Shown: in pieces, positions 6,576-38,900 of the stretch
Position numbering within the stretch: position 1 is the first letter of the stretch
How the letters are laid out: each line of letters starts with the position of its first letter
Assembly: GCA_020137815.1 (NCBI GenBank)
Contig: CM035360.1
Coordinates: forward strand, 372,001 to 436,000
DNA: 64,000 bases
DNA from: Hormiphora californensis
Taxonomy: Eukaryota; Animalia; Ctenophora
Reading direction: 5' to 3'
The notes under the pieces: generated by a model
Database searches by the model: none
Told to the model about the DNA's origin: nothing
The model's input: only the letters and a program-made list of their open reading frames with translations
Made by a program: the position numbers and the translations under genes

Positions 6576-8277
6576 TTAAACTTTAACATCAAATTTAGGA
6601 AATAGCAGTGTCTCGTTCTTCTTAACATTACACACCGCATTAGCCCGTTCTCTGAGCGGTGTTGACAGTGTTCTACAACGAGGGGACATTGGAAAAGTAT
6701 TGTTGTTATTAACCGGCTGATACCCCATCAACCTTATCCCAGTAGACCGGTGCAGTAACCAGGCTCTAAAGTCCCGTTTCCTGGTCAGGTAGATTAGAAA
6801 GTTTCCGGTGCTGTTTAGGATAACACATAGTACATCACTGGTGTTCCACGCGTAGTGTAGTCTGTAGACCGTTCGGTGGAAGTACCCCTCTGAAATGGTG
6901 TGGTTTGTTAGGAGGGATGGAGAGATACACGGTGGTTTATTTCTAGTGGGGAGGGAGAGGGGTTCATTGCCCTAAACTGGTAAAGATGAACTTAACTCAC
7001 CATCCTGTTCTAGAAGGTTTATAATTTGGTGATGTTACTAAGAGGGGTCTAGGGGGACTGATAAAAAGAGGGGTCTAGGGGGACTGATAAAAAGAGGGGT
7101 CTAGGGGGACTGATAAAAAGAGGGGTCTATGGGGACTGATAAAAAGAGGGGTCTAGGGGGACTAATAAAAAGAGGGGACAAGGGGTAACTGATAAAAAGA
7201 GGGGTCTAGGGGGACTAATAAAAAGAGGGGACAAGGGGTAACTGATAAAAAGAGGGGACAAGGAGTAACTGATAAAAAGAGGGGACAAGGAGTAACTGAT
7301 AAAAAGAGGGGACAAGGAGTAACTGATAAAAAGAGGGGTCTAGGGGGGGCTGATAAAAAGAGGGGTCTAGGGGGGACTGATAAAAAGAGGGGACAAGGGG
7401 TAACTGATAAAAAGAGGGGACTAGGGGGACTGGTAAAAGGAGGGGACAAGGAGTAACTGATAAAAAGAGGGGTCTAGGGGGGCTGATAAAAGTTCAACTT
7501 ACCATCTTGTTCTAGAAGGTCAGCCCAAATCCAGATAATCATGTTCACAATGAGCGGGGCATTGCACACAATATACAGTGCAGTAAACAACACAATAGTA
7601 ATGGATGCCTGACGTTTCAACCCTGATACCCCGCCCTCAACCCGCCGGTAAACCAGTCTCACAGACACCACGCAGCTGGCAGTGACTAGGAAGAAAGGTG
7701 GTAGTAGTAGGAGACATCCCACGATTTGAACTACAAGATAGAAACCTCCCTCGGTGTTGTCATCGTCCCAGCAGTAAACATCATCCCGTGGGAATGTAGG
7801 CCGAGTAATCCCGGAGATAAGAGGAACAAGTCGGTATAGGAACACAAACATCCCATATCCCACCATACTGCCGATCACTATATTTCGATTTATCTTGCAC
7901 AGGGGTCGGAGGAGACAATAAGTTCTACTGATGCTCAGTTGTGCGACAATGAATATAGAGAAATATTGGCACCCATGGAAGGTTGTACTCCATATTGAGC
8001 ACAGTAGGGCGTGGGAGAATATGAGGGAGTGCCGGTGACATATAAACGATATTCCAACAAAGAGACTCAGAGAGAGGAGGACGGTATCGATAACTGCAGT
8101 GATCAGATATAGCAGGGTTGGGAGCTCTGAGAGACCTCGCTGCTTGAAGTATAGACACGCTGCGATGTTTCCCGGGCAGCCCACTAGAAATAGGATGATG
8201 TATAGGACACCGTAGATGATATCGAGTGAGAGGTACGGCTGGAGGTCGTCATCTTGAGGTAGTTCCGTGATGTTCAT
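6576..8277 (-). CDS. Rhodopsin-class (class A) GPCR, 2 exons
   Basis: Exon 8277-7503 (MNIT.., TM1 GCPGN, TM3 LSISRTY, TM6 CNAP) ends GATG|gtaagt. Exon 6889-6576 continues in frame with TM7 VILNSTGNFLIY (NPxxY variant) and a TAA stop. Confidence 0.88.
7040..7490. repeat. 24-bp minisatellite in GPCR intron
   Basis: Unit ACTGATAAAAAGAGGGG(TCTAGGGGG/ACAAGGAGTA). Confidence 0.9.
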
Positions 8278-9524
8278 TGTTACTAAAACACAGCAGGTTA
8301 GTTTTAGGACGTCACAAGGAGCCTGCACAAACACAGCGGGTTGAATAAGAAAGGGTTCATAGAATTGGAACATAAAGAAACTACTACTGAAGCTACTACT
8401 TTATTAAATCAATCAGGAGTTCAGGAGTTAAGAATTAGATCAGGGCCCTTCTTGGGGCGATGATCTGACAAAGAGAAATACAACAAAGAGGTTATATACA
8501 ACACATATCGATGGAGACTGAGAGAGTATCGAGGGAGAGACACAGACTGAGAGAATCGAGGGAGAGACACAGGATGAGAGAATCGAGGGAGAGACACAGG
8601 ATGAGAGAATCGAGGGTGTGGTAACTCGAGAGCTCTCAAAGAACCTAGCAACAAGAGAGGGGCCGGGTACACATCGAGAGAGAATGGGAGGGGAATTGTG
8701 AGTGAGGGGGTATAAGCTGAAGAAGCAGGAACCTAACGATCAAGCCACGATAAGAGGGGAGATAAGAAGGGAGGGAGAAATGAGCAAAGCTGGACGAAAG
8801 GAATATGAGAACAAGAGAATTTAAAGTCAGCAGGCGGGCCACAATTATGAGAGAAGGCGAGGGGAATGATGAGAGAGGAGAATGATCTATGTGTTAACAT
8901 GATAAACTATCTACCAGCTCCGATTCCTGGACCGAGGTGAGAGTGAGTGAGAGTAAGAGAGAGAGAGAGAGAGAGAGAGAGAGAGAGAGAGAGAGAGAAA
9001 GAGAGGGAGAGAGAGAGAGATAGAGAAGGACAAAGGACTAATAGTTGGAGTGAGATTGTACGAAAGAAGGAGAAAAGTAGGTGCGAGAAATAGCCAGCTG
9101 TTCCTGGGGTGCATCCCCTCCCATGCAGCTCAGCTAGTATATTATTGCATTATTTATCTACCATGCTCAGTCAGCTCCTCAACTAAAGACCTTATCAAAG
9201 ACTCACAGACAGTCAGGAGGGGTGGTCAAGAAAGGCATGTATAACGGATAAGAGAGAACTTCCAGACAGTCAGGAGGATCACAGAAAAGAAAGCCATGTA
9301 TAACGGATAAGAGAGAACTTCCAGACAGTCAGGAGGATCATATAGCATCACATACAATCGTGGAGATAATAGAGAGCCATGACAGACAGATAGTATTTAT
9401 CAAAGAATCATAGACATAGACAGTAGAGGGATCGTGATAGAGAGCCATGAATTATAGAGCCTTTAGATTGGCTGCCGTAATGATGTGGACATAGTAGGGT
9501 GAATATCAGGAGAGAGGGAGAGGG

Positions 9525-35900: not shown

Positions 35901-38900
35901 GGTTATAATGGAAATAATATTCATATTTTGTAAAGTGTATAACACTTCCCCCCCTCAGTATAGCACTGTCTTTGAAACGGTTCGTAAACACCGTGTTAAC
36001 ATGAACTTCGTATACGACTACCATCCTGAGCAGTTTAGGGGGAACATAGCAGGTAGGGAATGTAGAGGGAGTGAGGGGAGATAGGGGGAACATATCAGTT
36101 AGGGACTAAAGCCTAGAGGAGGGAGGGGGAGAGTGAGGGGCGATCGCGATATGGTGAACACAGGGACTAGAGGGAGGGAGAGAAAACATTTGTATCAGGT
36201 AGAGAGAGGGGAGAGGGGTGAACACTGGATACTAGAGAGGGGGAACTGGGGGAGGGGGGAGAGAACATTTCCCGTAGGGAGAGGGGTGATCACTGATCCT
36301 TCTTTACCTGATCACTGATCAGGTAAAGGAAGGATTACTCCATATTTCATCCAACCAACCATTCCATGTGTGTTGTTCAGGTATACTAGCGTCAACCAGT
36401 GGTAATTTAATGGAACTATTTGTGGCTGAACTAGCCCCTGAAGATACAACCCTCTCCATGTACAGGTGTGTAGTGTGGCTCACACCGTCATTTTATATCA
36501 TAAAATCCACAGGTTAGGGGAATTGCCAAAATTAGTTTTTATTCGCAATCTACGTTGTTTTCGGATGTTTCTCCGTTCGTGTTTCTTCGTCGTCCGTGTT
36601 TGTCATTTCTTCGTCGTGCGATTTTCATCGTCGTCCGTGTAGCTCAAGTATCCCCTCAATCCCATGCTTGTTAGATCATCACTGCATGGACGTATATAAA
36701 AGCTACTATTATAGACAGTTATTATATATAGTGATTTCCCATTGTAACTCCTCGTTTTGTGTTCCCAGTTTCATGACACCCCAATCCTCTGTTACTCCCA
36801 TAACTCCTCGATTTTGTTCCCAGTTTCATGACACCCCAATCCTCTGCTACTCCCATAACTCCTCGTTTTGTGTTCCCAGTTTCATGACACCCCAATCCTC
36901 TGCTACTCCCATAACTCCTCGTTTTGTGTTCCCAGTTTCATGACACCCCAATCCTCTGCTACTCCCATAACTCCTCGTTTTGTGTTCCCAGTTTCATGAC
37001 ACCCCAATCCTCTGCTACTCCAATAACTCCTCGCTTTGTGTTCCCAGTTTCATGACACCCCAATTCTCTGCTACTCCCATAACTCCTCGTTTGTGTTCCC
37101 AGTTTCATGACACCCCAATCCTCTGCTACTCCCATAACTCCTCGTTTTTTTGTTCCCAGTTTCATGACACCCCAATCCTCTGCTACTCCCATAACTCCTC
37201 GTTTTGTGTTCCCAGTTTCATGACACCCCAATCCTCTGCTACTCCAATAACTCCTCGTTTGGTGTTCCCAGTTTCATGACACCCCAATCCTCTGCTACTC
37301 CCATAACTCCTCATGTTCCCAGTTTCATGACACCCCAATCCTCTGCTACTCCCATAACTCCTCGTTTGGTGTTCCCAGTTTCATGACACCCCAATCCTCT
37401 GCTACTCCAATAACTCCCCGTTTTGTGTTCCCAGTTTCATGACACCCCAATCCTCTGCTACTCCCATAACTCCTCGTGTTCCCAGTTTCATGACACCCCA
37501 ATCCTCTACTACTCCCATAACTCCTCATTTTGTGTTCCCAGTTTCATGACACCCCAATCCTCTGCTACTCCCATAACTCCTCGTGTTCCCAGTTTCATGA
37601 CACCCCAATCCTCTGCTACTCCCATAACTCCTCATTTTGTGTTCCCAGTTTCATGACTCCCCAATCCTCTGCTACTCCTGGGAAGGTGGAATTGGTAGCC
37701 TCTGACTTGATAGCCAACCTGACCGAGATGGTGAACAGAGATCCAGGATGGCTGAACACCCTGATATCGTGTTATGTGAAGATAGACGATATTCCATCAG
37801 GTTAGAAAGAAAGAGAGAGAGAGAGAGAGAGAGAGAGAGAGATAGAGAGAGAGAGAGAGAGAGAGAGAGAGAGAGAGAGAGAGAGAGAGAGAGAGAGAGA
37901 GGAGAGAGAAAGAGAGAGAGAGACTTGGTGGGAGGTGCTAACCGGTAACTACAGGTACATGTTGGTGGGGGGGGGGGGTGCTAAACCCTGGATGAGAATT
38001 ACAGGTACATGTTGGTGGGGGAGGGGGTGCTAAACCCTGGATGAGAACTACAGGTACATGTTGGTGGGGGAGGGGGTGCTAAACCCTGGATGAGAATTAC
38101 AGGTACATGTTGGTGGGGGGGGGGGGGGGGTGCTAAACCCTGGATGAGAACTACAGGTACATGTTGGTGGGGGAGGGGGTGCTAAACCCTGGATGAGAAT
38201 TACAGGTACATGTTGGTGGGGGAGGGGGTGCTAAACCCTGGATGAGAACTACAGGTACATGTTGGGTGGGGGAGGGGGTGCTAAACCCTGGATGAGAACT
38301 ACAGGTACATGTTGGTGGGGGGGGGGTGCTAAACCCTGGATGAGAACTACAGGTACATGTTGGTGGGGGAGGGGGTGCTAAACCCTGGATGAGAACTACA
38401 GGTACATGTTGGTGGGGGAGGGGGTGCTAAACCCTGGATGAGAATTACAGGTACATGTTGGTGGGGGAGGGGGTGCTGAACCCTGGATGAGAATTACAGG
38501 TACATGTTGGTGGGGGAGGGGGTGCTAAACCCTGGATGACAACTACAGGTACTTGTTGGATGTACCTGGTACCTGTACAGGTACTTGTTGGTTGTACCTG
38601 GTACTTGGTACCTGTACAGGTACATGTCGGGTGGGGGGTGCTAAACTCTAGAATCTAGATGAGTATTGAGTACTATAAGTATAGGTGAGAATTCTGTTGG
38701 TGGGGGGGGGGTTGCTAAACTGTTTGGTTGGGAATATCAACAACAGTGGTTACAGGATAGAGTGCCAAACAAAATTATTTCAACCCCTCTATCTTCATAT
38801 TCACTCTATAATACATAATTTATTTGGCGAAAACGTTTGTTGTGGTAATCTCCTATACCATTATTCTTGGAAATTGGCCGTTATGTTGTAATAATAACCC

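Follow-up and report, generated by a model that had tools for sequence, protein, structure and literature searches.

Our analysis of a 64,000-nucleotide stretch of the genome of the ctenophore Hormiphora californensis (contig CM035360.1, positions 372,001 to 436,000 of the forward strand; hereafter the window, in whose own numbering all positions are given) indicates that short copies of exon ends lie inside the neighboring introns and that these copies, which we call echoes, differ from their live exons mainly at silent sites. The silent bias is real and, at the scale of the window, statistically solid. We propose that echoes are probably short tandem duplications that straddle splice junctions and are dead; their exon bases would come from another functional allele and have been uncoupled from the live exon by recombination between homologs. 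Counting both of the routes by which such a pairing could arise, we consider it likely, though not directly confirmed, that introns thereby archive exon alleles. Most of the echoes are hosted by ELP1, the gene for Elongator subunit 1 (20956..41385, + strand), identified by tblastn homology search.

Exon borders and reading frames were fixed first, the frame of ELP1 from tblastn with the homolog P0001 together with the open reading chain across its exons, and copies of exon ends were then sought by an ungapped search blind to codon position. The count excludes the noisy stretch 26040-28200, matches within exons or off exon ends, pairings across haplotypes and three uncertain exons, as well as very short echoes (at 24245, at 5471 and in the 39340 and 47560 regions) and dubious ones near 45830 and 58190. 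Across 290 exon sites it leaves 29 unique variants, of which 19 are silent and 10 are replacements; under neutrality the silent fraction would be 0.24-0.30 (p 2e-6 to 7e-5). An earlier note on this DNA had described the differences as mostly silent, which the codon-blind count bears out, and the echo and exon pairs that it named are all present (12747/12839; 15303/15253; the pair in a G-protein-coupled receptor (GPCR) gene; 24245/24286; 25190, 25299 and 28965 with exon 9; 25791/25863). Its tally of about 26 silent to 7 replacement changes was right about the silent excess but made replacements too scarce, omitting for instance TCT>CCT in three array units, five array singletons and the variants of the array at 40009.

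The discrete echoes are fragments of 17-50 bases, mostly out of frame, and each carries one junction only, unlike the duplication of a whole exon with both splice sites that produces mutually exclusive tandem exons. Exon 9 of ELP1 has three: A1 (25190..25239, +; three silent changes, no replacement), A2 (25299..25338, +; one silent change) and B1 (28965..29014, +; four silent changes, no replacement), which together hold five silent variants and no replacement. A1 and B1 have the same 3' breakpoint, yet they are three silent changes apart and their intron tails are unlike. The earlier note had treated 25190 and 28965 as separate pairs; since they share a breakpoint on two haplotypes of one locus, they are not independent. 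An echo of exon 10 (25791..25807, +), with the silent change CTG>TTG, is part of a 72-bp duplication that is carried by haplotype A and is missing from haplotype B and from one contig of a second sample. The number of discrete echoes thus varies, exon 9 having two on one haplotype and one on the other. A donor-side echo of exon 14 (36082..36098, +) has one replacement and has lost the donor GT. Outside ELP1, an acceptor-side echo of exon 12839-12985 (12747..12772, +) shows five silent steps and one replacement, and exon 15107-15253 has two donor-side echoes (15298..15381, +) in which ATA and CCG are silent and a single replacement lies at the alignment edge. The end of exon 1 of the GPCR gene (live 7503-7520) has a donor-side echo at 7001..7018 (-) with the silent change CAA>CAG, a 27-bp array separating the two, while a donor-side echo of an F-box gene exon (4714..4731, +; live end 4668) shows zero differences. 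The pair at 24245 is present but not countable: the echo (24245..24250, +) repeats about 6 bases of the start of ELP1 exon 6 and has no definable end.

Taken copy by copy, the ten discrete echoes contain 18 silent differences in 68.8 silent sites, a proportion pS of 0.26 (confidence interval 0.16-0.41), and 3 replacements in 199.2 replacement sites, a proportion pN of 0.015, so that pN/pS is 0.058. Duplication on the same chromatid would lead one to expect about 26 replacements. The deficit indicates that most of the divergence built up while both lineages were coding, as the earlier note had proposed in attributing it to protein constraint. Sorted by class, the unique variants number 14 silent to 3 replacement in discrete echoes, 6 to 1 among array variants found in at least two units, and 0 to 5 among array singletons. 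The singletons serve as an internal control, their 0 of 5 silent differing from the echo ratio of 20:4 (Fisher p 0.001), whereas that echo ratio is indistinguishable from the 20:2 found between the exons of two allelic copies, A and B, described below (Fisher p 0.67). In the worst case, with the variants of the 40009 array added, the tally becomes 19:12, which still departs from neutrality (p 3e-5). These p-values overstate certainty: the sites of one echo are not independent of each other, and most of the signal comes from two loci.

Several junctions carry arrays rather than discrete echoes. A 31-bp minisatellite of about 108 units spans the exon 10 donor (29598..32982, +), a 59-bp one of 32 units the exon 13 acceptor (33840..35726, +) and a 56-bp one the exon 16 acceptor (36745..37678, +); a 49-bp array (37947..38559, +) and a 39-bp array (40009..40240, +) span donors. 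In all five the unit contains an exon end plus a splice site. Five units of the exon 13 array read CGT CTG in place of AGA TTG, three linked changes, every one silent. ATT, TCC and CCT are distributed through that same array by block duplication, so that presence in at least two units is there a weak marker of allelic origin. In the exon 16 array ACA stands in 16 of 16 aligned units against ACT in the live exon, alongside three replacement singletons. The live exon of the 49-bp array is missing from the window: residues 765-845 of P0001 give zero matches with an E-value below 1 in the window. About 75 residues of ELP1 (767-840 of P0001) are thus lacking, in the region 37800-38920, and the missing exon or exons were likely lost at an AG microsatellite at 37804-37923. 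AAC in 7 and AAT in 5 of its 12 units, with one GAG>GAC in a frame drawn from homology, hence compare echoes with echoes, and the earlier note's use of AAT against AAC as an echo-to-exon difference does not hold.

How different are the alleles themselves? ELP1 exons 7-10 occur twice, as copy A at 24538-26036 and copy B at 28359-29617. Their exons, compared over 559 nucleotides, show 20 silent and 2 replacement differences (pS 0.14, pN/pS 0.034); about 14% of silent positions and about 0.5% of replacement positions are unlike. Contigs of the second sample combine A and B variants within exon 9, which indicates that A and B are alleles. Splicing the A and B exons together would shift the frame, and the seam between the copies, near 28190, follows a noisy array and a partial exon 11 bearing indels; exact units make up 2 of about 58 in array A and 90 of about 109 in array B. 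From the allelic behavior and the noisy seam, the doubling of exons 7-11 (24400-33000) is likely a false haplotype duplication, in which the assembler set a second haplotype (exons 7-10, noisy array and partial exon 11; 24538..28210, +) in tandem with the first. The contig depths in one public run, X2 (A-only 165-191; B-only 100-119 with one piece at 209; shared 261-294; exon 4 in total 311), are weakly consistent with two homologs, depth not being copy number. Among exonic variants in public contigs, 29 of 31 are silent among the rows listed (40 of 114), and 15 of 16 in a second comparison. The species is hyperdiverse; its reported heterozygosity is high, at 3.2%, and its introns are rich in indels (PMC8527503, in part).

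How could a strong silent bias arise in fragments that are dead? Junction probes detect an echo at 12 of 99 junctions; the 20 cross-gene controls gave 0-2. Among probes lying wholly within introns, 11 of 69, 7 of 61 and 9 of 51 (11-18%) reveal short duplications, as does 1 of 80 inside exons; set beside these intron-only probes, junctions show no enrichment. Since duplication is as frequent within introns as at junctions, echoes seem to be those products of a general process that can survive. Short local duplications are common in these introns and seldom seen in exons; where one overlaps a junction, the exon stays intact and the copy persists, some copies growing into minisatellites. The alleles, highly divergent at silent sites, recombine within exons. 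The echoes would be young, at about 0.01 neutral substitutions per site, and unequal exchange between homologs could pair an echo with another allele at its birth; alternatively, a later crossover or conversion between a chromosome bearing the echo and one free of it would give the same pairing. Differences between echo and exon would then take on the silent bias of allelic polymorphism, while changes arising after amplification would be unbiased. The shared breakpoint of A1 and B1, together with their unlike tails and their three silent differences, fits a single origin followed by exchange with live alleles. Most likely, then, the pattern is a by-product of frequent local duplication, extreme diversity and recombination, with no new pathway involved.

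A number of observations weigh against this origin from other alleles. The pS of the echoes, 0.26, exceeds the 0.14 found between copies A and B (Fisher p 0.04), an excess that would need older or rarer alleles, or variation among loci. The sample is small, with 7 discrete loci, two of which carry most of the signal. The variants of the 40009 array are exclusively replacements (ATG>GTG in 5 of 6 units, ACA>ATA in 2 of 6). Intron 7 (24614-24796 in A, 28435-28617 in B) differs between the copies at just 2 of 183 sites, for which our model offers no explanation; the exons flanking it differ at 3 sites each, and the other intron blocks cannot be aligned between A and B. At an echo age of about 0.01 one would expect roughly one exchange in every 100 bp, enough to pair an echo with another allele, but this assumes recombination comparable to mutation, a rate that is assumed rather than measured.

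The most direct comparison, between echo variants and live alleles in contigs from public runs, a check that the earlier note had suggested, also came out mostly negative. These contigs derive from two samples, S1 and S2; S1 may be the source of the window, so that S2 alone is independent. Five of six echo variants (exon 9 positions 9, 12, 15 and 24; exon 10 position 1) were not seen at the live position in the contigs, and A, B and two S2 contigs reaching into the interior of exon 9 are without the echo variants that they cover, one of the S2 contigs starting past position 9. The comparison is a weak one, with 3-4 live haplotypes covering the variants and contigs that drop rare variants. The sixth variant, GTA at exon 9 position 3, does occur in four S2 contigs placed at the live acceptor, but these contigs stop about 31 letters on, so that linkage to the whole exon is not established. 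One S2 contig links an A1-like intron tail to a head placed at the live acceptor, its continuation through the exon likewise not being established. A public contig clipped at 25417 was considered as a live allele with an echo variant and rejected, its unaligned letters being downstream intron.

The excess of echo pS over allelic pS could be given a further meaning. It is possible, if rather doubtful, that echoes act as a two-way reservoir of alleles, in which misaligned exchange loads the acceptor and first codons of functional alleles into the echo, the reciprocal product carries echo bases back into the live exon and selection there removes replacements, and introns come to keep silent alleles older than, or lost from, the exon pool. 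Were this so, a single genome would allow past diversity and fine-scale recombination to be traced and dated.

We regard as unlikely a dedicated capture of alleles at birth, in which repair or recombination begins in the homolog's conserved exon and is resolved through microhomology within the divergent intron, junction echoes being a specific product of such exchange between homologs. A AATACCCC-like word at the end of the exon 9 echoes and also in intron tails would suit it, as would the intron tails of echoes, strongly unlike live tails while the exon heads match, and a 2-base insertion at the 72-bp junction. But the intron tail of the 72-bp echo is identical, the one breakpoint and different heads of A1 and B1 are explained by a single origin with secondary exchange, and a specific product of junctions is not what the equal rates at junction and intron-only probes suggest. 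Thus, of the earlier note's proposal of capture from divergent functional alleles, origin from another allele remains the best reading, while a pathway targeted to junctions is unneeded. Microhomology-mediated unequal exchange at birth may nevertheless contribute.

Less probable again is duplication on the same chromatid followed by neutral decay of the echo, with the live exon changing silently only and the remainder put down to small numbers and non-independence. Such a history predicts 41% silent changes, and the all-in tally of 19:12, drawn from few loci, is just modestly above that (p 0.019). The 14:3 of the discrete echoes is much further from it (p 6e-4, with sites treated as independent), as are the scarcity of replacements set out above, the wholly silent variants of the exon 9 echoes and the three linked silent changes of the exon 13 array. 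On the copy-wise 18:3, again with sites treated as independent, a model with allele swaps has a likelihood about 500-fold better than one without, and the earlier note's second suggestion, that the live exon simply kept changing synonymously, fits poorly on these grounds.

It is very improbable that echoes serve as alternative splice sites or micro-exons and are held where they lie by protein constraint. A further public run, X8, yielded only short pieces at 85% likeness, which do not bear on splicing. Many of them retain the AG or GT, and two discrete echoes (72 and 63 nt) read through in frame and free of stops. But 8 of the 10 discrete offsets are not multiples of three and would shift the frame, which makes such a constraint unlikely; moreover, of the 18 silent changes just 1 falls in the two in-frame echoes, a pair of donor echoes have no GT at the homologous position, and the pseudo-sites of human junction minisatellites are described as mostly silent (PMC1557585, in part).

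Equally improbable is that the assembler produced every echo as a haplotype mosaic, an origin that the noisy stretches, the likely false duplication of exons 7-11 and the missing exon might suggest, for five echoes (24245, the A1 start, B1, A2 and the 72-bp echo) are present in public-run contigs and so are not mosaics. S1 contigs hold the A1 start, B1, the junction of A2 with the live exon and the go-back joint of the 72-bp duplication; a single S1 contig covers the 24245 echo plus the live start of exon 6 with 0 differences, and both the 24245 echo and the B1 start are seen in S2 as well. Assembly error, which the earlier note had named as a possible refutation, therefore fails for these five, but it is the likely cause of the kilobase-scale repeat in which ELP1 exons 7-11 recur.

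Structurally, the arrays belong with junction-spanning minisatellites such as the 37-bp variable-number tandem repeat in IVS7 of human F7, where the first monomer spans the exon-intron boundary, as it does in CBS, LMNB2 and PDGF (PMC1557585, in part). There too the unit is an exon end with its splice site, reiterated into the intron, and the F7-type repeats are polymorphic in number. Here, on the other hand, both acceptor and donor sides are involved, 12 of 99 junctions are affected in one window and discrete two-copy forms occur, and the silent divergence on the scale of alleles is not discussed in the available part of that source. The discrete echoes work like miniature versions of the heterogeneous duplications of Anopheles ace-1, in which tandem copies hold different alleles behind shared breakpoints and whose authors weigh repeated unequal crossing-over against one origin whose product later recombined with single-copy alleles, as we do here for echoes (bioRxiv 10.1101/2023.05.10.539957, in part). 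Like those copies, echoes differ as alleles do (pN/pS 0.058 against an allelic 0.034); yet the ace-1 duplications are 203-kb, functional and selected, while echoes are neither whole nor functional, but dead exon fragments of 17-50 bases. In ectopic gene conversion between paralogs, detected through shared polymorphism, copies likewise share silent polymorphisms by exchange, and the shared-polymorphism test would suit echoes, but whole paralogous genes are involved rather than sub-exon fragments in introns (PMC3924832, in part). The hypervariable Schizophyllum commune offers a parallel in its 14% divergence between genotypes and in crossovers concentrated in conserved exons; it is a fungus, and duplicated exon ends go unmentioned in the available part of the account (PMC4209137).

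In partial coverage of the literature, we met no title or abstract opening that concerns silent-biased intronic copies of exon ends as archives of alleles. Introns are reportedly gained by tandem genomic duplication, a local duplication involving splice signals; there the outcome is a new intron, whereas here an existing intron takes in the copy. If the pattern is general, one assembly of a hyperdiverse animal would give thousands of pairs of echo and exon, replacement sites dating the echo and silent sites the coalescence of alleles, so that diversity and short-range recombination could be tested without population sampling. In practice, a dead fragment with a low dN/dS need not be functional, and both gene prediction and assembly in this group will be led astray by echoes of this kind and by haplotype seams.

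The window is also rich in short exons, microsatellites and minisatellites. Besides ELP1, we read in it an F-box gene, in an intron of which the two-exon GPCR gene (6576-8277, -) is nested on the opposite strand, FAHD1, a methyltransferase, a PH-domain gene, TRMT44, a taspase-like gene, EB1 and an RRM gene; ELP1 and TRMT44 are named by homology search and the others from reading their translations. The window's tRNA methyltransferase has a single exon, and its nearest named homolog is from the ctenophore Bolinopsis microptera (488 bits, against at most 300 in other named taxa). The phases of EB1 exons 58395-58600 and 58784-59239 fail to chain, possibly through one-base assembly errors or misplaced exon borders. 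Noisy homopolymer-rich stretches (2150-3500, 10400-10780, 13380-13700 and the excluded 26040-28200) look like unpolished long-read sequence. Upstream of ELP1 exon 3, an acceptor-like end recurs through an intron duplication of about 160 bases (21800-21960 and 22430-22590). A dispersed element of about 85 bases, beginning a few bases past several donors, lies at 4809, 24934, 28755, 40659, 44756 and 47076 and is of very high copy in public runs, with depth in the millions. Inverted-repeat elements resembling miniature inverted-repeat transposable elements or foldback elements lie at 13932-14954, 52869-53699, 54948-55754 and 61305-61526, the second enclosing a 63-bp array at 53050-53585, and a 482-codon open frame at 59760-61208 resembles a retroelement fragment.

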